NCBI RefSeq assembly: GCF_044704955.1
Contig: NC_091999.1
Location: 47,864,001 to 47,928,000, forward strand
Length of the DNA: 64,000 bases
Reading direction: 5' to 3'
Origin: Pristiophorus japonicus
Lineage: Eukaryota
In this document: in pieces, positions 10,194 to 47,973 of the stretch
Numbering within the stretch: position 1 is the stretch's first letter
How the letters are laid out: every line of letters begins with the position of its first letter
The notes under the pieces: model-generated
The model's input: the letters and a program-made list of their open reading frames with translations, nothing else
Databases searched by the model: none
What the model was told of the DNA's origin: nothing
Program-made: the position numbers and the translations under genes

Positions 10194-10357
10194 GACACAC
10201 TTGGAGAGACCGCACCTTCCTCGAGACAGGATCATTATCGTCACTAAGTTCACTGCAAGAAAGAGAAAAACAGGGAATTTATATTTCAGATTGAGAGCAA
10301 CATCAGCTGTCTCAAAGAATTATGTGTGAAATGTGTCAGGATTAAATGAACCATCCA

Positions 10358-10870
10358 ATGGGACGTGTGGTGTTTGGGTCAGGACTGATTACACCAGCGG
10401 ATGGGACGTGTGGTGTTTGGGTCAGGACTGATGACACCAGCGGATGGGTCGTGTGGTGTTTGGGACAGGACTGATTACACCAGCGGATGGGTCGTGTGGT
10501 GATTGGGACAGGACTGATTACACCAGCGGATGGGTCGTGTGGTGTTTGGGTCAGGACTGATTACACCAGTGGATGGGTCGTGTGGTGTTTGGGTCAGGAC
10601 TGATTACACCAGCGGATGGGTCGTGTGGTGTTTGGGTCAGGACTGATTACACCAGCGGATGGGTCGTGTGGTGTTTGGGTCAGGTATTGAAAGAACCAAT
10701 ATATGGGACGTGTGGCTGTCGGGGCAAGGACTGAATGTACCAATGGATGGAACGTGTGGGTGTTGGCTCTGGACTGAATGTACCAGTGGATGGGATGTTT
10801 GGGTGTTGTGACAGGGAGTGAGTGAAGCGGTGGATGTGATGTGTGGTTGCTGGGTCATGACTGAAAGAAT
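10358..10870. repeat. 43-bp minisatellite, ~7.5 near-perfect copies then degenerate
   Basis: Unit GATGGGTCGTGTGGTGTTTGGGTCAGGACTGATTACACCAGCG; AGGACTGA recurs at 10381, 10424, 10467... Confidence 0.92.
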
Positions 10871-12369: not shown

Positions 12370-13008
12370 AATACAATTAATAACTAGAACTAAAGGACAA
12401 GGACAGAAAATACAGAGAAACATGCGTTACATAATTAATTGCAGATGAAGGACTCACCAGGAACACCAACAGCAGCGAGGAGCGGGTAATAAATACGTTC
12501 CACATTTAAAAGTGCCCACACGATCCTAAGCTCAGTTGGAATCTCCCAGAACATGATTTGACTTTCTGTGACCTCCAATGAGAACTGTTCGTTTTAGACA
12601 ACAACTTCAGTCAAACATTGCTATACAGGCTGAAAAAAAATCCCGATTTATAGCCTGAGTGAACTCTCCAGTGAGACAATTAAACTGCACACTGAAGGAT
12701 AGTAATCACAGTCACTGAATAAACAAGTTTTCAGAACCTTTTCTTTGCATCACTTTCAATTGCAAAATATCTTAAAAGCAACGTGGCTTTCAGATCAAAT
12801 AACTTTATCCAAAACCAAGCACTATTGGTAAAAGCAGAAATAGTTAAGTCCACAGAATCACAGCATGCATGTGAAGGGAGCAGCTTCATTTATGGAGTTT
12901 CTATTATTACTGAGATATAAAATAACTCTGTAATTTCAGATTTTCAATTCACTTCTCGGCGTAACACAAGTGAAATAAAACAAATGGAAGGATAGATTTC
13001 TAAGTGAA

Positions 13009-13553
13009 GGTCAGTAACATACATGGGGACTGACAGTACAGTGCTAAGTAAGGATACATTGGCACTGATAATACAATGGTCAGTAAAGATATATGACGAC
13101 TGATCACACAATGGTCAGTAAAGATACATGAGGACTGATAATACAATGGTCAGTAAGGATACATGGGGACTGATAATACAGTGTTCAGTAAGGGTACATG
13201 AGGACTGATAATACAATGGTCAGTAAGGGTACATGGGGACTGATAATACAGTGGTCAGTAAGGCTACCTGAGCACTGATAATACAATGGTCAGTAAGGGT
13301 ACATGGTGACTGTTAATATAATGGCGAGTAAGGATACATGGGACTGATAATACAGTGGTCACTAAGTGTACATGCGGATAGATAATACAGTCGTCAATTA
13401 GGATACATGGTGACAGATAATACAATGGTCAGTAAGGGTACATGGGGACTGATAATACAGTGGTCAGTAAGGGTACATGGGGACTGATAATACAGTGGTC
13501 AGTAAGGGTACATGGGTACTGATAATACAATGGTCAGTAAGGATTCATGGCGA
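13009..13553. repeat. 35-bp minisatellite, ~15 copies
   Basis: Unit GGTCAGTAAGGGTACATGGGGACTGATAATACAAT. Confidence 0.92.
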
Positions 13554-13599
13554 CCTATGCTATGCAGATAGTCACACGCCATGCTATCGTTTATTTTAC

Positions 13600-15699
13600 T
13601 CAGAGCATGGAATGGAGAGACTGGAGGTGAGGAAAGGCGATGAAAGGAGCAGAGAGGTGAGGAGGGGAGAAGAGAGAGGACAGGAGGCGGGAGGGGAGTA
13701 GGCGAGAGTAGATGAGTGTGGAGGTGAGGAGAGGAGGGGAATAGGAGAGCAGAGGTGAGGGGAGGAGATGAGTGGAGTGGAGAAGACAGCAGAGCAGAGT
13801 AGAGGATAGGAGGTGAGAGGAGAGGTTGGAGGAGGTAAGAGAGAAGATGAGCAGGAAGGGGAGGAGGGTTTAGTGGAGGAGAGGATAGAGGAGAGAAGAA
13901 GTAGAGAGGAGAGCAGAGCAGAGATGAGTAGAGGAATGGAGAGGAGAGTTGATAAGAGATAAGGAGAGGACAAGTGAGGAGAAAAGAGGGCAGAGGAGAA
14001 GATAGGAGAGGGGAAGAGAGGAGAGGAGGGGAATGGAGATGAGAGTGTAGGGGAGACGGTAGGAGAGGAGAGTGGAATAGAGGTGGGGAGAAGGTAGGGG
14101 AGAGAAGAGAGATGAGAGGGGAGAGGAGGAGAGGAGCGGAACGCAGAAGGGTGGAATGGAGTGAAGTAGAGAGGGGAGAGAGGATGCGAGGGAAGGAGAG
14201 TAGAGCAGAGGAGAGGGGAAGGGCGGCGGGAGAGTAGAGGAGAGACCATCAGAGGAGAAGAGAGGAAGAGAGTGGGGAGAGCAGGGGCGAGAAGAGATGA
14301 GAAGGGAGGGGAGGAGAGGGGAGAAGAGAGGGGAAGTGGGGAGGAGAATGGAGGGGAGAAGAGCTGTTGAGAGTCGAGCAACGGAGAGGAGAGTAGAGGA
14401 GATGAGAGGAGAGGAGAGAAAAGAAGAAAAGGAGAGAGGAGGGTAGTAGATTAGAGGAGAGGAGAGAATGCGACATGGGACAAGAGAGGAGAGTAGAAAA
14501 GAGGGCAGGAGAGGAAAGAAGAGTGGGTAGTGGAGAGGTGAGTAGAGGTGAATGGAAAAGAGGGGTGGTGAAGTTAGGGGAGAGGAGAGGAGAGAGAAGA
14601 CAATGAATGAGAGGAGGAGGTAAAAAGAGGGTAGAGGAAAGGAGAGCAGATGGAAGGAGAGGGTAGGAGGGCAAGGAGAGGAGTGGAGAAGAGAGGAGTG
14701 GAGAGGGTACAGGAGAGCAGAGGGAACGAGAGGAGCGGGAAGGAGAAGAGAGGGGAGAACATCAGAGGACACAAGTTGAGGAGAGGAGTTAAAATGAAAG
14801 GGGAGAAGAGGTGAGACGCAGGGGAGAGGGGAGAGGAGAAGAGGGGAGAATTTAGGGCAGCGGAGTAGAGATGATTGGAGTGGAGAGGAGAGTAGTGATA
14901 GAAGCGACTTGAAAACAGGGGGGAGGAGAGGATAGGGGAGGAGAGGAGATGATTGGAGATGAGAGAGCAGAGGAGAGGAAATGAGAGGAGATGAGAGGAG
15001 AATGGAGGAGAGGAAAGGGGAGGAGAAGAGGGTCGGGGTGAGGGGAGAATGGAATAGAGGCATGGAGAATGTAGGCGAGAGGGGAGAAAATGAGGACATA
15101 AGAGAGTTGAGAGAACAGCTGAAAGGGGAGGAGAGTTGTGGAAAGGCGGGGAGATGGGAGAGGAGAGAGGAGAGAACGGGAAAACAGCTGAGGAGAGAAG
15201 TGGAGAGGAGAGAGGAGCAGATGGGAGAAGGGATGAGCCGAGTGGAGAGGATAGAGGAGGAGAGGGGAGAGGAGGAGAGAAGATGAAAGGAAAAGGAGGT
15301 GAGCAGAGGAGAGAGGAGATGAGAGGAGTGTGGAGGAGAGGGGAGGCGAGAGGAGGAGAGTTGTGGAGAGGGGAGGAAAAGAGGGACGAGCGGCGAGAGG
15401 AGGATAGAGATGAGCAGGGAGGGGACGAGAGTGTAGGGGAGGAGAGGTGACAAGAAAGCAGAGCAGGGGAGAGTAGAGGAATGGAGAGTAGATGTGATGA
15501 GAGGAGAGGAGAGGTAATTGGAGTGAAGAGGGGAGGGGATTAGCGGAGAGGGCTGGGCAGGGGAGAGGAGAGGGTAGGGGCGAGGGTAGGAGAGGAGAAT
15601 AGAGTAGAGGAGGGGAGAAGGCAGGGGAGAGGAGAGGAGACGAGCATAGAAGAGATGTGAGGAGAGAGGAGAGGAGAGGGGAGGGGTGAGGAGGGGAGG
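13600..15699 (+). repeat. ~2.1 kb polypurine, degenerate (GGAGA)n low-complexity tract
   Basis: Almost entirely G/A on the + strand; source of spurious Leu/Ser/Pro and Glu/Arg/Gly ORFs. Confidence 0.95.
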
Positions 15700-16297
15700 T
15701 GTTGGGGTAAAAAGGAGGCTTCTCTCCTTTAAGGTGGACTAACTTATGTAGTTAAATGACATCTCGCCCAGCTTCCCACTGTATAACGACCAAGGAAGTA
15801 AACAAACGAAACCTCAGGTTTATTGGTTTTATTACGAGCAATGCACGGGAAGGTTCAATCTTGGAACCTCTGAAATAGAAGCGTTTTCAAGAATTATTTA
15901 TACAGGTGTTGGAGAGGAGCTAACCTCCTGCAAAATCATCGATAGTTCTATTGCTATTAGCGAAGTTACATTGATTTGTTGACTCTTATCAGACGGGCTC
16001 TGAGTGGTACATGCAACTGCCCATCTCTCATCTTTGTTTTGTTCCATTTTGCCCTCTACCCCAGTATATCCGATGCCTCGTATGGTTGTCCTGGTTTCTT
16101 TATCTCTTCTCAGGGACTTGTAAAGAAAACTGCTGATTTTGGCTGATTAAGTCTTACTAAGGTTAAGCTATAATATACTGCGTATAAGCGTGTTTTCCCT
16201 TTATAAGCAAGTGTTACATACATAGGTAATTGATAAGTTCACAACCTTCAGCATAATGCTGACCCCATATCTAGAACCTTACTATTTATCCCTTACA
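15700..16297 (-). repeat. 3' LTR of ERV B
   Basis: TGTTGGGG...CCCTTACA, homologous to 23515-24112; GGGGGTAAT purine tract precedes it on the minus strand. Confidence 0.9.
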
Positions 16298-16499
16298 ATT
16301 ACCCCCAAATGGCCCTTGGCTATATGCCCAAGATAGGTCATTTCGCAATTAATTCCACATGGGTGAGCTTCCAGGGGTGACCTTTTACTTGGGTAGTGCT
16401 ACTTCCCGAGCTCCTAGATCTATCTGTTGGTTTTCCCATCAAGGTTATACTATGTATGTCCTTTCTGCCGGACAGTCTGATTTCCCTTTCTTCAATGTT

Positions 16500-18450
16500 T
16501 TATCCATAGTACGGACTAGGGCCTGCCTCTTACGTCGGTTACAGCTTTTTAAAGGATAATACTAGCAAGGTGAGTTCCATTGCACTACAACCAGTACAAT
16601 GAGTCCAGCATAGTTCGTGTATAAGTCCTTTCTAGCCAATATTTTCTCGGTGTTCGAATTATGCCCCGCCTGGGGTATACTCTCTTTCTTCTATTTTTCC
16701 TCCACTTGGGGTCTTCTCTATTCTACCGAATTCTTGCCCTGCCTGGAGTATCCTCTATGTTGTCGAATGGTGTCCAATTCAGTCCAGTTTGTTTCTCTTT
16801 CAATTCGAGTATCGGTTTTCCTTGTTGTCCGATGGCCTTCGCATAACCTCCTCAGGTAATGTCCATCATTGTCCCATCGATCATTCCTCCTTTAGCTCAG
16901 GGGTTATAATAAACCCATTTACATCTGTCTCGTTAAGTGGAGTAAAGCAGAAGTCAATATCCATAATGGTGCATGAGGTGTTCCTTTCTTCATTTCAGTT
17001 GCCGTGATGCTCACACATGAATCTCCATAACCTCGTGAAACAGCGATAATTTTGTAGTCCTGTGTTAGTGGGGGTGATACTCAAGATGCACCCGTCCACT
17101 TGATTATATCCACAGTCATCTTTGATCATTCGTAGTGGATCTCGACATAAAGCAACTTGGTTATTTTTATAACAATCTACATATGCTGAGACTCTTAGTA
17201 CTGTTGTTCTCTTCAATTAAATTTCTGTTTTTTCATCGTACCGCACACGAGTTTGATTCCTTTTTACTCCTACATTGTTTGGTGTAGAGTATCTACCATT
17301 GTCACATCATACTGTCCTTTTGATAATAAAAAATCTATTTAATGTGCGGTTACACAGCAGGCCTTTGAAACCCAAGCATGACTGTTTCTCTGCACCTCGC
17401 AGGCATGAGTCATGTTTTTTCTAAGGTCCAGTTGGTAAATATATCAAGTGTTATCCAACCGGCACCTTTCTATTCTGAAGCTGTTCAATGTTATGTTGTA
17501 TTCCATTCAGCAACCATACTCCATATCCTATACATAATAGTTCTGTCTGTATGGTTTTACTTAAGTTCGTTTCTGCTCTATTCATTTTTAGTTCTGGCGT
17601 GGTCTCGCAATGTGTGGGCCACTTTAATAATTCCCTTTCTGCGCCATTACCCAGTTGTGTCTGTAACTTTTCATGATCCTCATCCCTTTCCAGCAATCCC
17701 TGTAAGGTTTGTGTTTGGGCGTTAACTCGATCATCTATCGTGTCTGGCCCTATAGTGTTCCAACTCCCGCAACGTATCCCACCGTGTGCCATTTCTAGCA
17801 TCCCTCATTTTCCCCTGTCCCGTTTTTTACCTGACCCTCTTTCGACAATAAATTTCATGGCTTTTGATTGAGGGCCTTTAAGTGCTCGCAGGGTCAAGTT
17901 TCTATACAGTCTTATACTGTTTAACCTGCAGATGTTGGTGTTAGTTATATTGTTTAAATTTACGAATACAGTAATTATTCGCTGACGTACCCTGACGTGT
18001 ATCTTATCCTTGGTCTGCCATAGCAATTTCTCTTTTGCCCCAGTGTTTACAGTTGGACACGTTTGTGGCGCTGGGCGTGTGATGGTCGAGGTCCTGGTAA
18101 TGCTCACTGTTGCTAAACTAGTGGATGGGGCCGTGTTGGTGGGTCTATCTCTGGAGATATCCCTCCACCACCATTCATAGATGTTGAGTGAAATCTGCAC
18201 CCACTTCCCCGGGTGCAGTATGTTTGACCCTCCTGATTATAAAACACACCGCGGTCTTATTCCCACTAATTATGGTCCCGTATTATTGACACATCCCCAA
18301 TGTTGTTTCGTTTCCTTGTTACGTTGTTTTATGCCCGTTATTTAACTCTACTGTTGTTCCGTCCTTCACCATCAGTGTTTTTGATGTTTTATTAAACTAA
18401 TGTCGCCCAAGTTCCTGTAATACAGGCCTTGCCATCCCTCAGTCTGTTGT
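16500..18450 (-). pseudogene. env: ERV B env remnant (class I fusion protein, F-protein-like Cys pattern)
   Basis: Basic cleavage region GKKRDRGK (~17810), fusion-peptide/heptad region (ORF 17451-17801), DCYKNNQVALCRDPLRMIKDDCGYNQVDGC, GYGDSCVSIT, CTIMDIDFCFTP, hydrophobic TM remnant ~16560-16620; many stops and frameshifts. Confidence 0.75.
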
Positions 18451-18544
18451 CCCTGATATGAGGCTGCGTTACTCCACGTTATTTCCACGAGCTCTTGAGT
18501 CCTGCAAAAAGCAATATTTTCCGGTCGTCACTGGTTAGTTAGTG

Positions 18545-20900
18545 TCATGCTTTTTTAACTGGATCCAGTGTTTCCACTTGCCGATACTCCTTATAAGTAC
18601 CATAATTTACCATGATTACCTGATAGAGACCGATCCATTTGGATGCGATCCCGACCCTCTCTGGGGTAATCTCTTGACTGCCTATTTGGGGTGTTTGGAA
18701 CTTCTGTTTCTTAGTGTCGTTCTCTAAATCCATCACCAGCATCTGGATATCGAGCTTATCATGTTGGTTCTACCTGTATGCACATACCCGTGGTATAAAT
18801 TTAATAGGCTCCCCTGGATGCATTCCGGGGCCACCACATTCCCATCTTTTCTCCATATCCCGTCGGTCCCTTGTTTGGCCCTCTCTGCTTCCACTCCTCC
18901 TGTTCCTGCGGAGTGGCCTCTCCCTGTACCTCAAGCATATTTACTTCCTCAGGCCCAATTGTACATGCTCTGCCTTGGGCTTCCCCGGCCAGTGTACCTG
19001 CCACTCGCTTTGCTGCTTCATCTGTCCATGCATTCCCCTGTTCATACTGATCATTATTTTTTACGTGTGCTTTGATCTTTATTATCGCACACTCCTGGGG
19101 TAGGAAGGAGGCTTCCACTAGATGTTTCCCAATCTCCTCATGTTTAATCGGTCCTCCTCCTGAGGTCGTGTATCACCGTCTGCTCCAGGCTATCATATAA
19201 TCATGCTCTACTCCGATAGCATATCGACAGTCTGTATAGATATTTACTCATTTTGCCCTCGCAAGCCTCAGAGCCTCAGTGAGAACCACAAATTCAACCA
19301 CTTGAGCTGATAGATTGTCTTCTAACCGTCCTTCCCCTTTGACCTGACCGCTGCTATCTACCACGACCCATTCCGTCTGTGGTGTCCCATTGATATAGCG
19401 CCGAAACTCATCTACATGTAGATCCATGTCTGCCTCCTCAAGCAGGGTTTCACTTGCCTGACTACTTCCCTCATCTTCTGTTGTGCTACAATGATGCTCC
19501 TCTCCCTCTGTAATGATCCACCCTGCAGGCGTCTTTTATTATTGTTACCGTCCTGTTGAGTGGGGCGGGGGGCGTGGTGGGGGGTGGCGGGAGAGGAGGG
19601 GGGAGAACATTATTTACCACCTCGCCATTTGTGCATCGAATACATTTTTAGCCTTCCAGTTTTAAGTAATTCTACTAAGGTACGCTGGGTTTGTAGAATA
19701 ATGCATCCTGACATTATTATTGGTTCGTTAACTCTGATGGCCCAAGCCGCACAGTCGAGGGCAGCAACGCACCTGGACAGTCCTGCAGCTGCAGATTGCG
19801 GTTTATCTGAGTAATATGCCACGGTCTATGCCTGTCTCCATGTAATTGAATCATCACCGCGTTATAATGATGGTTAATATGGTAGGTATAGACGTGAAAG
19901 GGCCTATTCTGGTCTGGTAGTCCCAGGGCTGGATGACTTGTGAGAGTTTGTTTTAACCGCACACATGCAGTTTCTTGATCTAGGCCCAAGTTTACTGGCT
20001 CTTAGGAGGGGTCCCATCCTTTGACCTGTTTCTGTATAGGTTAGGCCACCTTGGCATATTCGGGAATAACATTTCTGCAGTAGTTTAATAGCCCGAGTAC
20101 CTGCCTGACCCCTTTCACGGTTCCTGGTCTGGGGATTGATTGAATTGTTCCTTACTGTCCTCGGGCATCTGTTTCTTCCCTTACGATATTATGTATCCCA
20201 GATATGTTACTTCGCTCCTTCTTTCTCCTAAGTCTACTGGTTCCAAAATCCCTGACAATATTCGATGAAGTATGCTCCAGCTGTTATTGAATCCCAGTGG
20301 TACCTTCGCCCATGTGTTTTGTTATCCATTTACCTTGAAGACAAATTTTCCTTGAGACTCTTTGGCTAAGGGAATGGTCCAGGTTCCATTCATTATATCC
20401 AGCACGGTGAATATCTTATGATCTGGATCCAGGCGATTAAAAATTGTGGCTGGACTTGCCACTATTGGGTGTTCTCCGGAAGTCACCTTATTCAGGGTGG
20501 TATAATCGATAGTCAATCGGTAAGACCTGTCGGGTTTCTTCATCAGCCACACAGGTGAATTAATAGAGGCTATTACATGTTTCAATATACTTTGCTCCTC
20601 TAATTCATGCACTATCTGACAGACCGCTGCCTCAGCTTCGGGTGTTAATTGGAACTGTCGGTGAGCTTTGTGTTCGGGTCCAGGAATTTTGATGGGTGAT
20701 ATCTCGGCTAATCCATAATCTTGTTTGCATTGTGCCCACAGAGTCGGGTATAATTGGCACACGCTACCCCATACACCCTTTGTTTCCCACTCGGGTTGGA
20801 TTATGTTTGTTCCTACCACTCGTTGCTGCTGGTGTCCCGGGTTTTCGAACTTAATTCGGTTTCGTGCTTATCTCCCAAAATTATCCGATTACGCTGAAGA
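18545..20900 (-). pseudogene. pol: ERV B pol remnant (RT, tether, RNase H, partial integrase)
   Basis: RT NSPVWLMKKPDRSYRLTIDY..LNK, FTVLDI.NG.W; thumb KGVRQVLGLLNYCRN; tether LGLPDQNRPFH/AYYS; RNase H SAQVVE..VNIYTD..KIKAH..GNAWTDEAAK; integrase LYHGYVHTG and KWIGLYQV. The YxDD segment, protease and integrase core appear deleted. Confidence 0.88.
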
Positions 20901-20999
20901 ACTATCAGTACCCCTCTCTCCCGAAATGTATCGCTGCCTTCTGTATGCCTTCTTTATGTTGTCTTCTGTATTCTGACAGCACCTAAACTGAGCAGGTAG

Positions 21000-22210
21000 C
21001 ATTAACCCTGTACTTCGACAACACCATCTCACTTCGGGTTGCTTTCTGATATCCCCCACTCTCTCCTTGTATGTTGATGGTCCTATGGGTCAGGGGCAAA
21101 TCTAAGTTGGTTATTGGGTGTTCTCGGGTTGGGGCGGTGGTGGCAGTGGTACCAGTGGTGCTGGTACCTGTCTGAGCATGTCCATCAGATCTTCCCTGGT
21201 TAATGGTATTCCCTTCTTTGCCTGTTTGTGGTCTCGCCATCCAGCGCCTTCCTCATAACTCCAGCAATCTTTGGCCAAATGTCCAAGTTTACCACAATTT
21301 TGACATGTCCCTTTAGAATTGCTGTAACGTCTGCTTTTCTGCAGGCAATCCCTACTGAAGTTACCTTCCTGATTGCAGTTTAAACATATCAGTGGAGCTG
21401 CGCGGGAGTGTGTCTCTTCCTCCTTCGTCTCTGCTGCTAACGCTGTTGCTGCTATTTTTGCTCATTTTTCCCTTGTTCTAACTTTAACCACTCTACATGT
21501 TCTGCCCATTCCAAAGTTTTATCATAATCATCTCCTGTCTTAAATACTCACTTAATTATCTTTTGATGTGCCTTTCCTAGTCCATCCTTAAACATTTTCA
21601 AGAATGCTGCATCATTTCTGTTGCGGTCATCAGCCCCAGAGTGGTTTTTGTATTCAATCCACTTTCGTTCCCCGTACTCCCCAACCCTTTTCCCTGCCTT
21701 TTGAGTCACAGTATTCTACTCCAGTCTTTTGTCAGAGTTCTGTATCTCTACTATTTTGCTTTAGCGGGTGGTAACTTATTCAATAGAATTTGTCTCCTGT
21801 GGGCTGAGGGGCACCTCCTGTATGGCAATGTGGGCTGCTCTACATCCGCTGGAGCGAATGGTGGTCGTGCGTATCCGTGCCACTGATAAATAGCCATTAT
21901 CATGTGCCGGGGCCACCTCTACTCCAAACTCATTATCCCTGTCTGATTGACTGTTAGGTTGGGGTTGTGGACTGCACTTACCCACCTTGGGGTACATTAT
22001 CTCTATTACCGTAGGTGATGGTGCTATGGCTGTGCTCTGCGCTATCTATCTGATCCTGTCTTTTTCTCTGCCAGCTTATTTATCTTAGCTTCTAACTCTT
22101 GAATTTGATGTGTTTAAATATCTAAATGTCCTCTGTAGCAGGTGATTATTATTACATAGGCTTTCTTCGTTTTGTTTTCATTCTGAATATCCCCACATTT
22201 CTTCTGTCTG
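21000..22210 (-). pseudogene. gag: ERV B gag remnant
   Basis: Coiled-coil QIQELEAKINKLAEKK (~22060-22115) and zinc knuckle CQNCGKLGHLAKDC (~21265-21306). Confidence 0.82.
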
Positions 22211-23494
22211 TCAGGTGAGTCTTTTTTCTTTTATTAAGAAATCCAAACTAATAATGTCCAGTATAAAACATCTTTCAATGGAAAGGGTTAACTCCACTAC
22301 AGGTTTGTAAGAAGGTTTGGCGTCATTACGTGACTTCGGGTATCCATCTGAAAATATTACCCCAAGTCTTTGTGCTTTCAAAACTTGATAAGAAATTAGG
22401 AATCCGTTAAAATAGCAGAAATTATTGGTAAAGTTGTCAAAATAAAACTTTCTCAGCGGGAAAGGCAGCATTTTAGATTAAACTCCAATTTCTCTACACA
22501 CCCAATTCAAATACGTGCCAACGAGTTTTTCATTGATTTAAAGCGAGACCACACATTTTAATAGCTATTTTGTTTACAGAAATCCAATTTCCACGCAAGC
22601 TATATACATTCCAGCATTTTGTTTTTTTATGGTCCCGTTCACTGAGCAAATCTTGTGTTTTATTTTCACTCGGCACAAAATCTAAACTTCTGTGCCGGTC
22701 CATCTTTTTAAGAATCCTGTAATTCCCAGTTTTTTCTTTCTGTGCTGAGTTCACATAACTTAGATCTTTCCCCCCTTTTGAATCTGAACTTAATCATTTT
22801 TTGATGACATTACTCCAGTCCATAGTTAAACATCTTTGTTTCTCTTCCTCGGCACAAAGCCTTGTCGGGTTTAACTCATAAGTTTTTATATTTCAACCAA
22901 TATGCTTTTCACAGCCAATTTAAATCTCGTTTCTTGAAATTAGGTTTAGTATTTTGATGATCTTCCTCCAGTCCATTTTGCTCAACATCTTTGTTTCTCT
23001 GCAGCTTTCAAAGTCAAATTTCTATCTTTTGATAAAAACAAACTGTCCTTTGTAAATTCAATTTGATATCCAACATTTTTCTTTTCTTTTATTAATTTTC
23101 CATTTATCTCAGCGAGCATTTTATCCCACTGGCATAGGATCCTGGGGTCCCACCCCACGGTTTAGGTTGTATTCCTTCTTGTTTGCACCGCACACGATCA
23201 ATACCAGCTTCACTGTGTGATTACCACGTCATGCTTCAGGACATACGCCTTATATTTCCTCTAACAATCGCTGGGGTCCACTCCCCATGCGGTTGCATTC
23301 CTTCTTTTTCAGGCATACACCTATCCCACCCTTGGTTTTCAACCATCTGTGGTTCGTTATAAGTTGTCCTGCAGCTGACCCCTTCAAATTCTTTATACAA
23401 ATTAGCTCCTTCCCCGTCAATGCTACAGCTGCATGTGGTAAAAAACATGCTCACTCCCATTTAGCTGTCACGTGATCCAGGTCGGAAGGTCTGC

Positions 23495-23512
23495 ATCCGG
23501 TTCATGACGCCA
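23495..23512 (-). promoter_or_regulatory. Primer-binding site, tRNA-Ser(CGA)-like
   Basis: + strand ATCCGGTTCATGACGCCA matches 16/18 with ATCCTGTTCGTGACGCCA; 2 nt from the LTR. Confidence 0.8.
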
Positions 23513-23514
23513 AA

Positions 23515-24112
23515 TGTTGGGGTTAAAAAGGAGGCTTCTTTTCTTCGACGTGGACTAACTGATATAGTTCATCGACACCTCACCTTTCTCCCACTGTATA
23601 ACGACCACGGATGTGAACACACGAAATCCCACGATCAACTGGCTTTTATTACCAGCAATTGCAAGGGAAGGTTCAGTCCTGGAACCTCCGAAATACAAGA
23701 GTTTTCAAGCATAACTTATACAGGTTTTGGAGAGGAGCTATCCTCCTGCAAAATCATCGACAGGTCTATTGATATCAGCGAAGTTACATTGATTTGTCGA
23801 CTCTTATCCGACGGGCTCTGAGTGCTAAATGCAACAGTCCATCTCTCATCATTGTTTTGTTCCATTTTTCCCTCTACCCCAGTCTATCCGACGGTTAGAG
23901 TGGCTGTACTTGCTTATTTATCTCTTCCTCAGGGACGTAAAAATACTGCTGACCGGCTGTTTAAGTATTACAGAGGTTACGGATTCAGTTCAATGCGTTA
24001 TACATTTGCGCTGTACCTACATAAGCAAGTGTTACCTACATAGCAATTATAAGTTCATAACCTTCATCATAATTCTGAGCTCCTATTTGCAACCTTATAA
24101 TTTATCCCTTGA
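23515..24112 (-). repeat. 5' LTR of ERV B
   Basis: Colinear with 15700-16297, roughly 80-85% identical by eye; terminal ACA altered (CCCTTGA). Confidence 0.9.
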
Positions 24113-25487
24113 TGGGGTCGATGCAAAGCCTCCATCATTGTTCCCCATGAGTCATCTCATTGTTTGGTGAGACGGTTATTCTCTCTGCTTAGATCTTCTT
24201 TTTAAATCTCAAGATTTCCTAATTGTTTACATTGCAGCCCCTACGTGAATTGCATTGATACTCTGCTGTTGCATTACTGCAGTAGCTGAGGCAAATTGAC
24301 TCTGCAAATTCACAATTTTCTGTTTAATGTCTGAATCTATTTTCTGCAATTCTTCATTCTTAGCCGAATTTTTTTTTCCAGTTCTGATATTTTATCCTCT
24401 AATTCTTTCTTGACCTTTGATTGACGTCCTGCGAAGTACGAAGCTGCACAGGTGACTTAACTCATCGCCTTACCCAGCTTCCATTTCTTAGCTTTAATCT
24501 GTTCATCAATAAAAGTGACCGTATCCTGAAGGGATACATTCGGAATCTTCCCGAGGCAATCTAGCAACAGTGTCTGCACTTGCGTTTCGTCACATCTTTT
24601 TTCTAACTTTTCCAAGAGACTCTTCCAAGAGACACTCCTCCGGCATCTGAAAATTAATTATTTTTAAGTAAGCTTCCTTAATGAAGATAACAGTCACTAG
24701 CAGTTGACGTAAATCAACCTTACACAAGATTTGATCTGCCTTGCATCTGCTGGTGACACACAAGAACTTGTTTTCAAATAGAGAGAAAAAATTACAAGAG
24801 TTCCCAATTAACTTGATTATTGAGTATATTGCATTTTGTTCAATATCTCTTTGTTTTGTTCCTTCGTGGTCGCCAGATGTAGTTTTTAACCAATGAGCAG
24901 CTTTTTGCCGCTTTGCTAACTATAGCAATTCAGCTATTTCCAGGGTATATAATTAATTCAAACTGGGAGACTCTTGTTCAGATCATACCAAATACGTGTA
25001 ATACAGGTATAGTGAGTAAAAACAGTGTTTTATCAAGTAAATTACATTCTGTTACAAAAAGTAATACTTAACAAATTATAGTCACAGTCTAATTCTCGAT
25101 AGCGTCCTCTCGAGCTGACCGTGGTGCCGACTCCTTATCTCCTGTTCGCTTGATTCGCACTGCCTTCTGAGTAGAAGAGCTGTTACTTTATACCATTTTT
25201 CTCCCATTCAAAAGCTGTGAAAATTTACAGCTGTTGTAGCCTTACAGTAGTTCATATTATCTACTGCCTTTGACTTTCTATGTTATCTCTATCTCCCTCC
25301 CTCTCTGTGGCAGGAATCACTTCTCTGAGAACAATTATACAGACCATGGTCACACAGAATTCATTACTGAGGTTGGCTTTACAAAAATATGACAAGAACT
25401 GGTACGCAATGTATACCTTTATGTTATTGATTAATAATTTTGGCCTTGATCTTTGTATTTCTAAATGAAGCTTTATCAGCAGTTACA
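24113..25487 (-). mobile_element. Endogenous retrovirus C fragment (5' LTR from 24878, tRNA-Arg PBS 24860-24875, gag N-terminus)
   Basis: Minus-strand PBS TGGCGACCACGAAGG (tRNA-Arg 3' end); gag-like ..IDEQIKAKKWKLGKA..KVKKELEDKISELEKK; LTR right edge uncertain. Confidence 0.7.
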
Positions 25488-25539: not shown

Positions 25540-26300
25540 TTGTAAATGTATATGTGGTTATGTCGAAATGTTTGTTTATGTTGAGGTGTAAGTGTGTGTG
25601 AGTTTTCGTGTAACATTGTGTTCACATGTAAGTGTGTGTGTGTGTGTGTTTTGTGTTAGTTTGTGTTTGGATTTATAGGCATGTCAATGCTTGTGTAATT
25701 GTGTTGAGGTATGTGTTTTCCTGTAAGTGTATGGTTATGTCTCAATGTTGTTCATGTTTGGTGAGTGTTTGTGTGTGTATGTTTCGTGTAAGTGTGTGTT
25801 TTGATGTGTGTGTATAAGTGCAATAGTGTGTTTGCATGCAAGCGTGTGTGTGTTTTGTGTAAATCTGTATTTGATTTGATGCATTTGTTTACGAGTGTGT
25901 GTGTGTTTTGTGCAAGTCTGTGTGTGGATTGACGTGTTTATTTACCTGTGTGTAAGTCTGTTTTTGTGTTTTGTGTAAGTGTGTGTGTGGATTGATGTGT
26001 GTGTAAGTGTGTTTTTGCAAGTGTGTGTGTGGGTAGATGTGTGTGTTTTATTGTGTGTAAGTGTGTATAAATGTGTTTTGTGTAAGTGTGTGTGTGTGGA
26101 TTGATGTGTGTGTTTATGTGTGTGTAAGTGTGTGTGTGCTTTGTGTAAATGTGTGTGTAGATTGATATATGTGTTGATATGTGTGTAAATGTGTGTAAGT
26201 GTGTTTTGTGTATGCGTGTCTGGATTGATATGTGTGTCTATGCTTGTGTAAGTGTGTATAAGTTTCCGTTGTGTTAGTGTGCGTTTCGATTGACGTGTAT
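25540..26300. repeat. Degenerate TG-rich satellite (TGTGTAAGTG-type)
   Basis: Long imperfect (TG)n with recurring GTAAGTGTG and GATTGATGTG motifs. Confidence 0.9.
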
Positions 26301-27193
26301 TATTGTTTTGTTCAAAGTTTCAGAGAGTACCAATAACTGGATTTGACAATGATGGTTTTCATTATATTCTAGTTATGTATAATATTATGTTTCAGGTTGT
26401 TAGTATGTCTTTATATGTAAGTCTTTGTGTGTTCATGTGTAATTGTGCACTTACACAAAAACACAAACTTATACAAAATCATCAAAACACTTACATGTGA
26501 ACACACACAAACTCACTTTCACATGTATTCTCCTCCGCTCTGTGTAAATGTGTTCTGTGTGAGGCGCAATGTGACATCAGCCGAACGATTGCAACAATTC
26601 AACCGATGGGCTTCAGCAACATCAGGGACACAACTGTGAGAAACCCGCAGAGGATTCAGTCACCAGTTGAGACATGGCCCATTAGAATTCAACATGTTAG
26701 TTTACAATTAACATTGACTGTTGCACCCCCAACCCTATTTAAAAATATTACGTGAAATAAATAGTTATTTCAGAATATAATACTCATATGGCAAGTTTAA
26801 AATTTTTAGATCATGGGTTAGAATGTACGATGGCAACTTAGTGCATTAAAAAGAGAGTGGTTCACTTCCCATCTCCCTGCAGGAGGGGCAGTGGGGGTTA
26901 CATGAATTACACGTTTCCCTTTCTCCTCTCGCTGGTGCGTGTGAGAGGTACAGTGAGTTAAAATTACCCTTTACTCCCTCTCAGCTGAAGTTACCTTCAG
27001 GAATCCTGTAATGAGAGAACTCCACCCAGTTTCTAACTCATGCTGTATCTGAGCTGGGAGCGCTGGCTGTACAAGCCTTGGGACCAAGATCCGCAAACAC
27101 CCTACTTCAGATAAACAGCCCTCACATTGGTCAAAATAGGAAACATAATTAATTGAGCGGCTGTGTGTTTAACTCACGATGGAAGAAAAGCCC

Positions 27194-27250: not shown

Positions 27251-28475
27251 CGACTAAGAAAGCAATAAAGGAAGGAAAGATAGATTACAAAGGTAAACTT
27301 GCGCAAAACATGATTACGGATAGTAAAAGCTTTTACCGATATGTAAAACGGAAAAGAGTTTCTAAAGTAAATGTTGGTCCCTTAGAGGATGAGAAGGGCG
27401 ATTTAATAATGGGAAATGTGGAAATTGCTGAGAGCTTAAACAATTATTTTGCTTCGGTCTTCACAGTGGAAGACACAAAAACCATGCCAGAAATTGCTGG
27501 TTAAAGGAATGTGGGAAGGGAGGACCTTGAGATAATCACTATCACTAGTGGGGTAGTGCTGGACAGGCTAATGGGACTCAAGGTAGAAAAGTCCCCCGGT
27601 CCTGATGAAATGCATCGCAGGGATAAAGAGATAGTGGAAGTTATAGCAGATGCATTCGTTAAAATCCACCAAAACTCTCTGGACTCTGGGGAGGTACCAG
27701 CGGATTGGAAAGCAGCTAATGTAACACCTCTGTTTAAAAAAGAGGGCAGGCAAAAGGCAGGTAACTAAAGGCCGGTTAGTTTAACATCTGTAGTGGGGAA
27801 AATGCTTGAAACTATCATTAAGGAAGAAAGAGCGGGATATCTAGATTTGAATAGTGCAATCAAGCAGACACAGCATGGATTCATGAAGGGGAAATCATGT
27901 TTAACTAATTTACTGGAATTCTTTGAGGATATAAAGAGCATGGTGGATACAGGTGTACCGATAGATGTGCTGTATTTAGATTTTCAAAAGGCATTCGATT
28001 AGGTGCCACACAAAAGGTTACTGCAGAAGATAAAGGCACGTGGAGTCAGAGGAAAAGTATTAGCATGGATAGAAAATTGGCTGGCTAACAGAAAGCAGAG
28101 AGTCGCGATAAATGGGTCCTTTTTGGGTCGGAAATCGCTGGTTAGTGGTGTGCCACAGGGATCGGGGCTGGGTCTACAACTGTTTACAATATATATAGAT
28201 GACCTGGAAGAGGGGACAGAGTATAGTGTAACACAATTTGCAGATGACACAAAGATTAGTGGGAAAACGGGTTGTGCAGAGGACACAGAGAGGCTGCAAA
28301 GAAATTTAGATAGGTTAGAGAATGGGCTAAGATTTGGCAGATGGAATTCAATGTCGGAAAGTGTGAGGTCATCCACCTTGAGGGAAAAAAAACAGCAAAA
28401 GGGAATATTATTTGAATGGGGAGAAATTATAAAATGCTGCGATGCAGAGGGACTTGGGGGTCCTTGTGCATGAAA
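27251..28475 (+). mobile_element. CR1 LINE, 5' segment (host of the Tx1 array)
   Basis: Degenerate ORF2: KSPGPD, ANVTPLFKK, QHGFMKGKSCLTNL, FADDTK, ending at RDLGVLVHE. Confidence 0.93.
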
Positions 28476-31400
28476 CTCTTTTAGGAGCAAACAAAAAACA
28501 TTAAGCCGTGCCCCCCGATCTGGGGGAAACACCAACATTTACAAGGTTTATTTTTGGCACAAAAGCATATTTTTTCTCCAAGTGCCCCCTATAAAAGGGG
28601 CGGGGGACACTAAAAGCACCGGCAATTAAAACAAATTAACTTAAAAATATGAAATCAAGTTAAAATTTGGTTGCCGGGCGTGATGATGCACTCCAGTCCC
28701 TCTGGTGACCACCTCTTGCGGAAGGCAACGAGTGTACCGGTGGACACCGCATGCTCCATCTCCAGGGACACCCTTGACCGGATGTATGCGCGGAAGAGAG
28801 GCAGGCAGTCTGGCTGAACGACCCCCTCGACCGCCTGCTGCCTGGACCGGCTGAGGGCCCCCTTGGCCGTGCCCAGGAGCAGTCCTACGAGGAGGCCCTC
28901 GGACCTACCCGCTCCCCTCCGCACAGGGTGCCCGAAGATCAGGAGAGTGGGACTGAAGTGCAGCCAGAATTTCAGGAGCAGCCCCTTTAAATAACAAAAC
29001 AGGGGCTGCAACCTCGTGCACTCAATAAAAACATGGAACACGGACTCTTCCAGACCGCAGAAATTGCAGGCGGCCTGGGAGCCCGTGAACCGGCTTAAAA
29101 ATTTATTGCTCGGCACTGCTCCGTGCATCACCCTCCAGGCCAAGTCCCCGGCAAATAGTGGGAGGAACCCTGCGTAGAGTGCCCTCCATCAGGATCCCCC
29201 GCCTCCTCTGGACGGCAAGATGGTACGCAATGGCGTGTCCAGACGGCAGGCAAGGATGGCAAAGTTGAGAGTGTGTAGGAGCAGCCCGTACAGGAAACCC
29301 CTCCGCGCGGAACTGAAAGGCACGGAGGGGATTTCCCCGAGGCGGCTCAAGTTGTGAGGCGCCGGCCCCGAGGGAGGTTCCGGGGTTTGGCGCCGATGAG
29401 GAATTCCGTCCGGACGGGGGTCAGTTCGGATGGGATCTCCCCGCATGCTTGAGCCTCCTCGATGCACCTAATGGAGTCGGGGCCCAGAGCTGTTTTTAGC
29501 GACTCGATGGCATCAGCCGCGCGGCGGACGTTGGCAGAATTTAGGCGCCACGCCAGCGTGTCTGGCGCCATCCAAGCCGCTCCTCCGCCATCGAGCAGGT
29601 CCCTGACCCTGGTCACCTCACCAGCCAAAGCCCTCTCATCCGACCGCCACCTAAAACCTCGGTCGTGGAGGTACGGATTCCCGAGCAGTGGCTTCTGCAG
29701 GACGGCCGCCACTCCAGCCGGTGGAGAGCTGCGTTTGGTGGAGACTTTGTTCCAGACCCTGATGAGTTCCTTGTAAAAGACAGGCAGCTCCCGGAGGGCG
29801 GTCCTGACGCCCCCCACACTCACAAACAGGAGCTGCATGTCGTAATTGAGGTCGCGCTGCTGGCGGAAGAAATACGTCGCCAGAGCACGCCATCTAGGAG
29901 GGGGCTCGACGTAAACGTATCTCTGCAGTGTCTGAAGATGGAAAGTAGCAAGCTGGGCGCTGACGCACACCAACGACTGACCGCCCTCCCCAAGCGGGAG
30001 ACTCAAGACCGCGGCAGAGACCCAGTGCTTCCTGTTGTTCCAGAAGAAGTCCACCAGCTTCTTCTGTATCTTGGCGACAAACGCAGGTGGAGCGGTCAAA
30101 GTGACCAGCCGGTACCACAACATGGCGGCCACAAGCTGGTTTATGACTAGCGCTCGACCCCTGCAGGACAGCACTCGGAGCAGTCCTGTCCAGCGCCCTA
30201 GGCGAGCGGCGACCTTGGCCTCCAGCTCCTGCCAGTTCGCCACCCACACTTCCTCGTCCGGGCTAAGGTAGACTCCCAGATAGAGGAGATGGGTCGTGCT
30301 CCAGGCAAAAGTCCTGAGCTCCTCCGGCAGGGAGTCCACCCGCCACTGACCCACCAGGAGTCCGGAACATTTCTCCCAGTTGATTCTGGCGGAGGATGCG
30401 GCCGAGTAAATCTCCTGGCACTCACGCATTCTCCGCAGGTCAGCGGGATCCTCTACCGTGAGGAGCACGTCATCGGCATAAGCCGAGAGGACGAACTCCA
30501 CGCACGGCCCTTGCAGAGCCAGTCCCGTCAACCTCGTCCGCAAGAGGCGCAGGAAAGGCTCCACGCAAACGGCGTATAACTGGCCGGACATGGGGCATCC
30601 CTGGCGCACCCCTCTCCCAAAGCGAAGGGGCGCCGTCAAGGACCCGTTAACATTAATCAGACACTCCGCGGCGGTGTACAAAAGTCGGATCCGGGCGACG
30701 AAATGCGTCCCGAAGCCGAAAGCGCGCAGAGTTCCGAGCAGATAGTCATGATCCACCCTGTCGAACGCCTTCTCTTGGTCGAGAGATAGGAAGGCGACCG
30801 ACAGACCAGCCTCCTTGGAATAATGGATGATGTCCCGGACCAGATGGATGTTATCCTGGATTGACGGCCCGGGACCGTGTAGGACTGGTCGGGATAGATC
30901 ATGTGGTCCAGCACGGCACCAAGACAAGCAGACATCGCCCTGGCGAAGATTTTGTAGTCCGTGCTGAGGAGGGAGACCGGGCACCAGTTCTTAAGGCAGC
31001 GGAGATCACCCTTCTTAGGCAGCAGGACGATGACTGCCCTGCGCCAAAAGAGGGGCATCTCCACGGTCGCCAGACTTTCCCCCACGACCCGCGCGTAGTC
31101 GCCCCCCAGGACGTCCCAGAACGCCCTGTGGAACTCCACGGTTAGCCCGTCCAGCCCCGGGGATTTTCCCCTCGAGAGCCGGTCGAGGGCGCCAGTCAGC
31201 TCCGCCAGGCTTAGCGGAGCTTCCAGATTTTCGGCGCCCTCCGGGCTGACCTTCGGCAGGTCCTCCCACAAAACTCTACGCGCTTCCTCACTGGACGGCT
31301 CCGGAGAGAACAGGGCACCGTAATATTCACGGGCCCTGTTGTTGACGCCCTCCGGATCCGAGATAGAGCCGTCGTCGGCCAGCAGCGTCAAGAGCTGCTT

Positions 31401-34400: not shown

Positions 34401-35620
34401 CCAGGGACACCGCTCGCTCTGACCCCAGGAAGAACACGGCCTTCCCAGACATCTTGGAGGCTGCAACAATGGCCGAGTGGCCGACTACCCCAGCCATCGC
34501 CCGCACGCACTGCTCGATGCTCATTGTGGGGTGAGTGTAGCTCTTGACCCCGTGTTTCTTGGCTATAAGTCTGAATGGTGGCAGGGCAGCAGGAGGCACA
34601 GGAGGTGCCGTGGAAGCGGTTGCCACCTGCGCATATGTCCTCGCTGGCCCTGCCACCGGCGTGGATGGGGTCGCCATCACAGGGTCCCTTTAAGGCCTAC
34701 ACCCACCCCAAAGTCACAGGCCTTAATGGTCTTAAATGGCCTCGTTTAAGTATTTGAACAGAGGGAGCTCTGAAAGAGGCACACCTCTGCCCTAGTTGGC
34801 AATTGGGGAGGGGCCTTGCTCCCTCTGCTCAGTTGTCTTAATTGTTCTTGTCTTTTTTTCCCAATTGGGAGGAAAGGCTCTCAGAGAGAGAGGGGAGAGA
34901 CAGAGAAAGAGTGAAAGAGCCAGGCGACGTGGAAAAGAGGGAAGCTGCGAGGGCTGGTCTCCCCTCACAGCGATGGGTGGGTGCACTCCCCAGATGTCAA
35001 ACAAAACAGTCTTTGGGGTGGTCTTCGGGTGGGTGGAGAAGATGTCTTCACCTGGGACAGCTGGAGCCACACAGGTACACACTCCCAACGATGTTATTCA
35101 GGGTGATTGAGTTTCTTCAGCCAGGTAGCTCCAGCTATCCCAGGCTAGGCAATGGTGGAGGGGTGCTTCAGTGGTGTGTGGGCCTAGCTGTAGGCAAGAC
35201 CCCCACACACACTTCAACACACACACACACACACACACACACACCCCGCGATGTTCCGGCCCTCAATTGGTCTTCTTTCCTCCCCCCAACCGATAAAACA
35301 AAGTCTTTTTGGGGAATGCACCAAAACACACCCACCTCTGGTTGAAGAAGTCTTTCCCTCCTTCCACACTGGTAAGTTGTTGTTCTTTTTTTTTCCCCTC
35401 TCTCGAACTCTTCGTAGGAATAATAATGGTGTTGCAGTCTTCTGCTCTCCTCCTCTCACTCTGGATAAATGGTAATGAAGCTCCTTCCTTCCTCCTCCTA
35501 TTCCTGGTCTGTTCTCAGGGCTCAGTCAAGGCATCCCAGACAGGAGCAAAGCAGGGAGTTCCTTCTCTCTCAGCAGCACAGCTCCAAGTGAAGAGGCCAC
35601 GCCTCCAAAGCTCCACCATT
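28476..35620 (-). mobile_element. Tx1-clade non-LTR retrotransposon copy 1 (full length, ~7.1 kb)
   Basis: ~940-bp 5' UTR; ORF1 from 34677 with CHACREVGHVRKNC knuckle; ORF2 32549-28655 with APE endonuclease (IASLNING, GGDFN, SDH), RT (SLDQEKAFD, QGCPMS, YADD) and C-terminal CNFCG..ESVFHVFIEC; frameshifted. Confidence 0.93.
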
Positions 35621-35637
35621 GGTCTTTGTGCATCAAA

Positions 35638-41600: not shown

Positions 41601-42753
41601 GCCTTCCCAGACATCTTGGAGGCTGCGACAATGGTCGAGGTGCCGACTACCCCAGCCATCGCACGCACGCACTGCTCGATGCTCATTGTGGGGTGAGTGT
41701 AGCTCTTGACCCCGTGTTTTTTAGTTATCAGTCTGAATGGTGGCAGGCAGCAGGAGACGCAGGAGGTGCCGTGGAAGCGCTTGCCACCTGCGCATATGGC
41801 CTAGCTGGCCCTGCCACCGGCGTGGATGCGGTCGCCTTCACGGGGTCCCTTTAACGGCTACACCCACCCCAAAGTCACAGGCCTTAATGGTCTTAAATGG
41901 CCTCGTTTAAATATTTGAAGAGAGGGAGCTCTGAAAGAGGCACACCTCTCCCCTAGTTGGCAATTGGGGAGTGGCCTTGCTCCCTCTGCTCAGTTGTCTT
42001 AATTGTTTGTTTTTTTTTAATTAGGAGGAAAGGGCTCTCAGAGAGAGAGGGGAGAGACAGAGCGAGATAGATAGAGGAAGAGGGGGGATGGGAAAGAGGG
42101 AAGCTGCGAGCGCAGGTCTCCCCTCACAGCAGTGGGTGGGTGCACTCCCAGATGTCAAACAAAAGAGTCTTTGGGGTGGTCTTCGGGTGGGTGGAGAAGA
42201 TGTCTTCACCTGGGGCAGCTGGAGCCACACAGTTACACACTCCCAACCATGTTAATTAGGGTGATTGACTTTCTTCAGCCTGGTAGCTCCAGCTATCCCA
42301 GGCTAGGAAATGGGGGAGGGGTGCTTCAGTGGAGTGTGGGCCTAGCTGTAGGCAAGACCCCCACACACACTTCCACACACACACACACACCCTCCGCGAT
42401 GTTCCGGCCCTCGATAGGTCTTCTTTCCTCCCCCCACCGATACAACAAAGTCTATTGGGGAATGCACCAAAACACACCCACATCTGGTTGAAGAAGTCTT
42501 TCCCTCCTTCCACACAGTTGTTTTTTCCCCCTTTCTCCAAATCTTTGTAGAATTAATCAAGTTGTTGCAGTCTTCTGCTCTCCTCCTATCCCTCTGGAAG
42601 AATGGTAATATAGCCCCTTCCTTCCTCCTCCTATTCCTGGGCTGGTCTCAGGGCTCACTCAAGGCCTCCCAGACAGGAGCAAAGCAGGGAGTTCCTTCTC
42701 TCTCAGCAGCACAGCTCCAAGTGAATAGGCCACGCCTCCAAAGCGCCACCATT
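35638..42753 (-). mobile_element. Tx1-clade retrotransposon copy 2 (full length, multiple frameshifts)
   Basis: Same architecture; ORF1 pieces 39821-41686, ORF2 pieces 39712-35835. Confidence 0.93.
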
Positions 42754-42769
42754 GTTCCTTGTGCATAAA

Positions 42770-47956: not shown

Positions 47957-47973
47957 GGTCCTTGTGCATGAAA

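Follow-up and report, generated by a model that had tools for sequence, protein, structure and literature searches.

The snakehead retrovirus (SnRV) clade, or clade Huo, has been treated in several studies (PMC4422223, PMC6001957, PMC12193657). It is broad and found in all major vertebrate lineages (PMC6001957), and SnRV-like endogenous retroviruses (ERVs) were reported earlier in the elephant shark as CmiERV lineage I (PMC4422223). Lokiretroviruses were found in none of the six chondrichthyan genomes (0/6) in the survey of Wang and Han (PMC7947760, Fig. S1), their RNase H groups with that of foamy viruses as group I, and all retroviruses carry a tether plus a second RNase H (PMC7947760). The same study left open, among four scenarios, whether env entered retroviruses in a single event or repeatedly, and independent origins were preferred in another (PMC9040795). 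Our literature search found no F-like Env reported for the SnRV clade, and Calcraft et al. 2024 (Cell) may discuss F-like Envs of fish retroviruses.

Here we analyzed a provirus in a 64,000-nucleotide stretch of Pristiophorus japonicus DNA (the window), which an initial annotation had taken for a lokiretrovirus that might extend the host range of that lineage. We consider it highly probable that the element is a dead shark-type ERV, likely of the SnRV (clade Huo) group of canonical retroviruses, from a family with an Env of predicted F fold, F being the fusion protein of RSV and measles-type viruses.

RESULTS

Anatomy and state of the provirus

The ERV occupies positions 15700-24113 on the minus strand in the order LTR-PBS-gag-pol-env-PPT-LTR (Table 1), and its LTRs are 83% identical over 587 ungapped columns (K2P 0.19). 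The provirus is dead, as deletions and stops leave every enzyme broken. About 166 bp deleted near 21116 removed the gag/pol junction, the protease N-terminus and the DTG active site (no DTG occurs in any minus frame of this copy), ~138 bp deleted near 20222 included the YXDD motif, and ~581 bp of the integrase core were lost near 18731. The initial annotation had passed over these three losses in protease, RT and integrase. Much of the initial annotation was borne out here: Pfam finds RVT_1, RT_RNaseH_2 and RNase_H in the minus frames, matching the RT, tether and second RNase H described, and the tRNA-Ser primer-binding site agrees with a tRNA-Ser(CGA) gene that this genome carries. The CCHC knuckle claimed for gag is also present (zf-CCHC), but there are two knuckles, not one; in a relative's Gag, the knuckles alone were detected by Pfam. 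Two dispersed subfamily copies have a leader of equal length. No target-site duplication was recognizable at the window copy, and no Rfam families or tRNA genes were found in the window.

Table 1. Features of the window provirus (positions within the window).
Feature	Position	Strand	Evidence or remark
5' LTR	23515..24113	-	outer end degraded, inner end ...CCCCAACA; aligned to 3' LTR
Primer-binding site, tRNA-Ser(CGA)	23495..23512	-	16/18 bases match
Long leader, without notable open frame	22300..23494	-	gag boundary approximate
gag, stops and frameshifts	21180..22300	-	start approximate; tblastn with relative's Gag maps 22221-21180
gag CCHC knuckles	21345-21386 (degraded, His lost); 21264-21305	-	Pfam zf-CCHC
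Protease remnant	20870..21116	-	three-way alignment with dispersed copies
RT and tether, frameshifted	19640..20867	-	Pfam RVT_1, RT_RNaseH_2
Second RNase H of MLV/SnRV type, interrupted by stops (group III in PMC7947760)	18990..19430	-	bounds approximate; Pfam RNase_H E 4e-13
Integrase remnants: zinc-finger start and C-terminal tail	18550..18897	-	relative comparison
env, stops and frameshifts	16440..18540	-	ends approximate; tblastn with relative's Env maps 18176-16887 at 38%
env cleavage-site region	near 17805-17816	-	
Degraded polypurine tract	16298..16322	-	compared with relatives' tracts
3' LTR	15700..16297	-	TG...CA ends intact

Copies in the genome

The window copy lies within a block present ~70 times on one contig (C23). 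Three of the four copies checked there share both flanks at 93-99.9%, and the fourth shares one flank. An infection would have brought the window copy into the germ line, where it would have decayed and been multiplied passively by segmental duplication, not by retrotransposition of its own. Better-kept relatives carry a single in-frame TAG at the gag-pol junction (2/2 cleanly read copies) and clear 5-bp target-site duplications (3/5 copies). Judging from these relatives in the same genome, the window element would have used tRNA-Ser priming, produced Pol when ribosomes read through the one in-frame TAG that follows gag, and generated 5-bp target-site duplications on integration. We rejected an LTR age based on the K2P distance: it came to ~44 My or ~440 My depending on which of two substitution rates quoted in PMC4422223 was used, and transversions are in excess in this copy. 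No RNA dataset was listed as carrying the window sequence. Contigs of one DNA run cover 30/30 window bins at 98% or more, but the window sequence may itself derive from that run, so this is not independent support.

Pol resembles SnRV in its RT and RNase H motifs

SnRV and lokiretrovirus motifs were read off the alignment rows of PMC7947760. [LV]PQG[FI]HxSPxIFH is present in 7/9 relatives and GxLEGxxSAQVAELVAL in 4/9, both matching the SnRV rows; the RNase H is of group III, its SnRV-type motif being exact in 4/9 relatives, and the window copy keeps the RT and RNase H motifs in degraded form. None of four lokiretrovirus RT/RNase H motifs was found in any of ten copies (the window copy and nine relatives), and the exact back-translated lokiretrovirus RT motif had 0 matches across the whole genome. 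Counted by eye, the RT core of one relative (L029) agreed with the SnRV row in ~113/250 columns (~45%) and with the Loki-Lca row in ~86/249 (~35%). Against the PDB, the window RNase H scored 66.7 bits with MLV/XMRV and 14.8 bits with 2lsn, which we take to be a foamy virus RNase H. Similarly, a relative's Pol aligned with that of MLV across RT, tether and RNase H (374 bits), whereas its alignment with foamy Pol was confined to RT and stopped before RNase H (207 bits); Ty3 scored lower than both.

The nearest Pols are uncharacterized shark and teleost records (47-62% identity), and class I Pol homologues are 33-42% identical by blastp. A quick RT tree, built from 62 rows after 66 of 128 available ones had been set aside, had long outgroup branches. 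It grouped the window with five copies from its own genome (SH-aLRT 99), then with shark and other Pols (95), and separated a 22-row group including the window (94) from 37 gamma/epsilon-type rows (92), with gypsy rows placed far off. This tree contains no named SnRV, lokiretrovirus or foamy sequence; the SnRV assignment rests on the motifs and the by-eye count. A class I (gamma/epsilon) ERV was rejected on its RT identity and on the branch apart from the 37 class I-type rows, and Ty3/Gypsy (Metaviridae) on the dual RNase H, the Ty3 score and the position of the gypsy rows. A homologue search with the longer Pols for named SnRV or lokiretrovirus Gag-Pol gave 1 unrelated match among 1099 candidates; IMG/VR scans returned no match with Pol and one unrelated GC-rich contig only with the lokiretrovirus RT pattern.

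An env family with a predicted F-like fold

The cysteine spacing C-x8-C-x10-C-x7-C (17088-17174; 0 matches in 300 base shuffles), G.G..CV (17012-17032) and FCF.P (16938-16952) are all in env exactly as first described, and the gamma-type CX6CC, said to be missing, is absent from the window env region and from an uninterrupted relative's Env. The window env matches the family profile (hhalign P 99.8%), and its pieces are 41-58% identical to a related copy's Env. Relatives have an RxKR site and a fusion-peptide-like segment. A HMMER search with env recovered 41 homologues; among the 20 looked up, 16 come from sharks or a skate and 3 from frogs, the closest being a shark record 96% identical to the related copy's env, in line with the cartilaginous-fish host initially proposed. 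At 18-28% identity, members of the family occur in sharks, one skate and frogs of three genera, suggesting an old association. No SnRV Env appeared by name among the 41 homologues (20 looked up) or among the 50 BFVD matches listed (3 without names), and a word-based homologue search with env gave 0/7995 candidates.

Sequence and profile searches of the PDB with env gave no significant match to F, and Pfam found no convincing F match in the env family (Fusion_gly E 0.12 in 1/43 members; Baculo_F E 0.001 in one homologue only). A first env fold from six near-identical rows was discarded (pLDDT 27). The Env of a related copy, not the window's own, gave a model with pLDDT 67.6 and pTM 0.57, whose top Foldseek matches in the PDB were all F proteins of RSV or paramyxoviruses (best E 4.6e-12), with TM-scores of just 0.3-0.5 and large rmsd. 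VIA gave Z 10.9 to NDV F over 287 residues and 9.3-10.9 for nine F chains, compared with 7.3-7.5 for foamy Env and 6.4 for the best unrelated structure. In BFVD, the model matched the predicted Envs of WDSV and WEHV (E 2e-10 and 2e-7). The envelope of the window's family is thus predicted to be paramyxo/pneumovirus F-like in fold. The comparison with F proposed in the initial annotation was positive for this relative's predicted fold and negative for sequence and profile searches. By analogy with the relatives, Env would be cut at RxKR into F2-like and F1-like parts, and the cut protein would fuse membranes in the manner of class Ib fusogens.

DISCUSSION

The reading of this element as a lokiretrovirus, and hence of the lineage as extended to cartilaginous fish, is already largely refuted, and we give it very little credence. 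The F-like fold of the relative's Env, the RxKR site with its fusion-peptide-like segment, and the tether plus second RNase H would all suit a lokiretrovirus, and the lack of chondrichthyans in the original host list, tentatively stated in the initial annotation, proved correct (PMC7947760, Fig. S1). However, none of the ten copies has a lokiretrovirus motif, nor does any exact match to the RT motif exist in the genome; the RNase H belongs to the MLV/SnRV type, whereas that of lokiretroviruses groups with foamy; and the dual RNase H is shared by all retroviruses. The initial annotation had named an RT within established retroviral genera or Ty3/Gypsy, together with an env without F similarity, as findings that would speak against it: the RT does point to canonical retroviruses, and F similarity is present in env. 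That similarity is not diagnostic of lokiretroviruses, because walleye epsilonretrovirus and foamy Envs also match the model. The proposed host-range extension fails as well, since SnRV-like ERVs are already known from a chimaera, the elephant shark (PMC4422223). Taken as a locus, this is an unremarkable dead ERV, its group having been recorded in cartilaginous fish before.

Two further explanations concern the SnRV assignment itself. The element could belong to a separate, unnamed lineage of canonical fish and shark retroviruses beside SnRV and class III, outside the SnRV clade. An RT identity to SnRV of just ~45% by eye, nearest Pols that are uncharacterized, a Ser primer, and the missing SnRV Env among named env homologues are consistent with this, but the RNase H and RT motifs held in common with SnRV and the breadth of clade Huo, which reaches every major vertebrate lineage (PMC6001957), make it unlikely. 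Somewhat less improbable, though still doubtful, is a recombinant that joined an SnRV-like pol to an F-type env captured from a loki-like or other donor, SnRV proper having no such Env. Retroviral domain swaps are frequent (PMC7947760), and SnRV Env itself was not recovered in the env homologue or BFVD matches; against this, env homologues of low identity occur across sharks, skate and frogs, and the fold finds matches in the walleye and foamy Envs too. The recombinant reading is about where env came from and does not conflict with an SnRV-type placement of pol. We favor an SnRV-like canonical retrovirus, of a family with a predicted F-type Env, as the probable origin of the window element.

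An F-like env is no hallmark of lokiretroviruses, as a canonical SnRV-like family carries one by prediction; used as the sole criterion, it would mislabel fish and shark ERVs as lokiretroviruses. Such a family also bears on the number of retroviral env gains. It is possible, although we lean slightly against it, that the F-type (class Ib) Env is ancestral in retroviruses and has persisted in four places, namely lokiretroviruses, foamy viruses, the walleye epsilonretroviruses and, by the prediction made here, a widespread SnRV-like shark/frog lineage, the gamma/beta/lenti type being later. If true, a single early env gain would be favored over independent origins, and the window's env family would fill in an orthoretroviral branch that the F superfamily has lacked.

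Comparison with known systems

With SnRV and clade Huo, these elements share RT and RNase H motifs, a group III RNase H, presence in cartilaginous fish and the highest RT identity of the rows counted (by eye). They differ in that no accessory ORFs were seen, the relatives' Env tail is ~35 aa beyond the membrane anchor compared with 136 aa predicted for SnRV, and the window copy is dead.

Lokiretroviruses likewise have gag-pol-env between LTRs, a tether plus second RNase H, and an F-related Env with an RxKR site. Our elements differ from them in RT and RNase H motifs throughout, in an RNase H outside the foamy/loki group, in two CCHC knuckles (none by eye in one lokiretrovirus Gag), and in an extra N-terminal part of Env, ~180 aa before the F core. 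The SMC-like gene, optional in lokiretroviruses, had no Pfam match in the degraded provirus's three minus frames or in a relative's Gag. Lokiretroviruses are further marked by an RT clade sister to the sampled retroviruses, an Env related to Mononegavirales F (PF00523) and an integrase close to CGIN1; the window copy has lost its integrase core.

Foamy viruses differ in RNase H type, in CCHC knuckles and in the in-frame gag-TAG-pol junction seen here; to our knowledge, foamy Gag lacks CCHC knuckles. Their Env core is likewise class Ib, or F-type (PMC11468914), and is matched by the Env model at the Z-scores given above. The epsilonretroviruses WDSV and WEHV share the group III RNase H and have predicted Envs matched by the Env model; however, the RT of our elements shows just 33-42% identity to class I Pols and falls on a separate branch, and the walleye virus Envs are much longer, at 1159-1317 aa.

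RESULTS

Anatomy and decay of the provirus

The LTR pair of the window copy (see table) is 83% identical over 587 columns (K2P 0.19), and the primer site lies two bases beyond the 5′ LTR. The primer-site pattern had a single match in the genome, identified by ARAGORN as tRNA-Ser(CGA), which agrees with the window site at 16 of 18 bases, in line with the tRNA-Ser primer site of the initial annotation; the CCHC knuckle, RT, tether, and RNase H that it listed were all recovered by Pfam. Three deletions emerged when the window copy was compared with two dispersed members of its subfamily. The first, ~166 bp near 21116, takes out the gag/pol junction and the active site of the protease; the second, near 20222 (~138 bp), the YXDD region; and the third, near 18731 (~581 bp), the integrase core. 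Single frames contain 6 stops in env, 3 in RT, and 6 in RNase H, partly frameshift-derived. The window copy is incapable of replication.

Features of the window, with positions in nucleotides
Feature	Position	Strand	Remark
5′ LTR	23515-24113	minus	alignment to 3′ LTR
3′ LTR	15700-16297	minus	alignment to 5′ LTR
C-x8-C-x10-C-x7-C	17088-17174	minus	env motif, present
G.G..CV	17012-17032	minus	env motif, present
FCF.P	16938-16952	minus	env motif, present
Non-LTR retrotransposon tandem array	28459-48167	minus	~2.7 copies of a 7.1-kb GC-rich unit
Repeats/GA-, GT-rich tracts	10280-10860, 12958-13620, 13600-15699, 25550-26450, 52831-53134

A GA-rich tract adjoins the provirus, and the window also holds long degenerate GA- and GT-rich tracts and 43-, 35-, and 38-bp tandem repeats. 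The units of the non-LTR array are 88-92% identical, encode an APE endonuclease and RT, and resemble the Tx1 clade.

Related copies and duplication

Using the window's RT piece as query, 150 copies were scored among 23,994 candidates; of these, 77 were 85-100% identical (71 on C23, the window's contig, and 6 on small contigs), and the remainder were mostly dispersed, at 65-81% identity. Both flanks are common to the window and three of the four C23 copies checked (93-99.9%), with one flank in the fourth, and thus the C23 copies represent segmental duplication of a block. Dozens of duplicates of this block, in both orientations, lie at ~14-67 Mb of G000:C23, some of them 99.7-99.9% identical across the 13 kb checked.

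The dispersed relatives are better preserved than the window copy, with the pol order PR-RT-tether-RNase H-integrase, two CCHC knuckles, Ser primer sites, and LTR pairs at 95-99% identity. The two copies with a clean reading have one in-frame TAG at the gag/pol boundary, and 5-bp target-site duplications were clear in three of five copies of the younger subfamily. Two dispersed subfamily copies (within L025-L028) carry non-LTR retrotransposon sequence inserted in pol. Private changes numbered 582 in the window copy (292 transitions, 290 transversions) and 255 and 325 in two dispersed copies (ratio 2.4-2.8), and transversions exceeded transitions in 11 of 12 comparisons of C23 duplicates (L004-L012, L064, L065, L067). 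Divergence this rich in transversions may reflect a regional mutational process on C23 or errors in its assembly.

Envelope sequence and predicted fold

The three env motifs noted initially are all present, and the cysteine spacing never occurred in 300 shuffles. In a related copy whose env frame is uninterrupted, an RxKR site lies at 269 and a membrane anchor near 670-700; the frame includes a cysteine-rich region but no CX6CC, in line with the non-gamma-type env described initially. The family conserves two single cysteines, one ahead of the cleavage site and one past the first long helix, together with the four-cysteine motif, G.G.YCV, and FC; the window env matched the family profile with a probability of 99.8%. 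Four full-length members of 675-749 aa, from a bamboo shark and from frogs (P0131, P0146, P0152, P0156), are candidate co-opted env genes; the N-terminus of P0152 gives a faint V-set Ig match, and P0131 bears an Ig-like label.

An AlphaFold2 model was built from 43 rows for residues 180-668 of the Env of L040, a related copy rather than the window's own (pLDDT 67.6, pTM 0.57). All 45 PDB matches listed by Foldseek were paramyxo- or pneumovirus F proteins (best E 4.6e-12, TM 0.3-0.5), and the independent aligner VIA placed nine F chains on top (Z 9.3-10.9, 268-287 residues). BFVD matches listed included lispi-, paramyxo-, baculo-, and chuvirus glycoproteins, with an unnamed top match. No sequence-level link between env and F was found. 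The F-like Env of the initial annotation holds at the level of predicted structure, and the family's Env is predicted to adopt an F-type fold.

DISCUSSION

A host among cartilaginous fish, as first proposed, is well supported because the env homologues are mostly from sharks or skate (16 of the 20 looked up among 41 from a profile search, with 3 from frogs and 1 unnamed) and the nearest named Pols are of shark and teleost origin. The closest env homologue is 96% identical to the env of a related copy.

The initial annotation read this provirus as lokiretrovirus-like and as a possible extension of the host range, stating correctly that chondrichthyans were not on the host list, as PMC7947760 gives 0 of 6 chondrichthyan genomes as positive. 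Its lokiretroviral identity is largely refuted. Using group motifs from the PMC7947760 supplementary alignments, none of four lokiretrovirus motifs was found in the window copy or nine relatives, while the snakehead retrovirus (SnRV)-type RT and RNase H motifs occurred in seven and four of the nine, respectively, and in degraded form in the window copy. Among 120 Pol homologues, the same SnRV-type motifs were present in only 2 and 0. By-eye counts against two rows of that supplement gave ~113/250 columns for the RT of L029, a related copy, with SnRV vs ~86/249 with Loki-Lca. Lokiretrovirus RNase H groups with foamy virus (PMC7947760).

A relative's Pol matched MLV in the PDB through RNase H (374 bits) and foamy Pol over RT only (207 bits). 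The window RNase H is MLV-type, not foamy-type, scoring 66.7 bits with MLV/XMRV vs 14.8 with 2lsn, which we take to be the foamy RNase H domain. The window's short RT piece alone scored slightly higher with foamy virus (48.8) than with MLV (42.2), scores that do not separate the groups. The RT tree (quick method, 62 of 128 rows) joined the window to own-genome copies (support 99). These fell in a group of 22 shark, teleost, and unnamed rows (94), which was separated from 37 rows of class I type (92). The main weakness of this placement is that no named lokiretrovirus, SnRV, or foamy virus is among the rows. An exact lokiretrovirus RT pattern had no match across the whole genome, which is weak evidence that true lokiretroviruses are rare or absent there. 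Taken together, it is highly improbable that the provirus is a lokiretrovirus; it is likely a dead SnRV-like ERV of cartilaginous fish from a group already known. A CmiERV lineage of elephant shark clusters with SnRV (PMC4422223), the SnRV-related clade Huo occurs in all major vertebrate lineages (PMC6001957), PMC4977317 and PMC12193657 are consistent with this, and no chondrichthyan lokiretrovirus record was found in passages of PMC12440569, PMC11089739, or PMC10435555.

The ancestral virus would have been primed by tRNA-Ser, have read through the TAG to make Pol, and have carried an Env cut by furin before class Ib fusion; the window copy may have passed from germ-line infection through decay to passive amplification.

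The interest lies in a canonical retrovirus lineage with an Env predicted to be F-like. In the literature searched, seen in part and mostly outside subscription journals, we found no statement of such an Env in SnRV or epsilon-type retroviruses. The F core is contained in foamy Env (PMC11468914) and in many Ty3/gypsy elements (bioRxiv 10.1101/2023.10.26.564294), further F-type cases in Retroviridae are expected (PMC12583693), and lokiretrovirus and canonical Envs are considered unrelated, with independent origins preferred (PMC9040795). Foamy Env matches the same L040 model below the F chains (Z 7.5 and 7.3 by VIA, the best unrelated chain being 6.4). The BFVD matches listed also included feline foamy Env (1.1e-5) and the predicted Envs of the walleye epsilonretroviruses WEHV-1 (2.4e-10) and WDSV (2.2e-7), the walleye entries being Q9WHI8 and A4GTG3.
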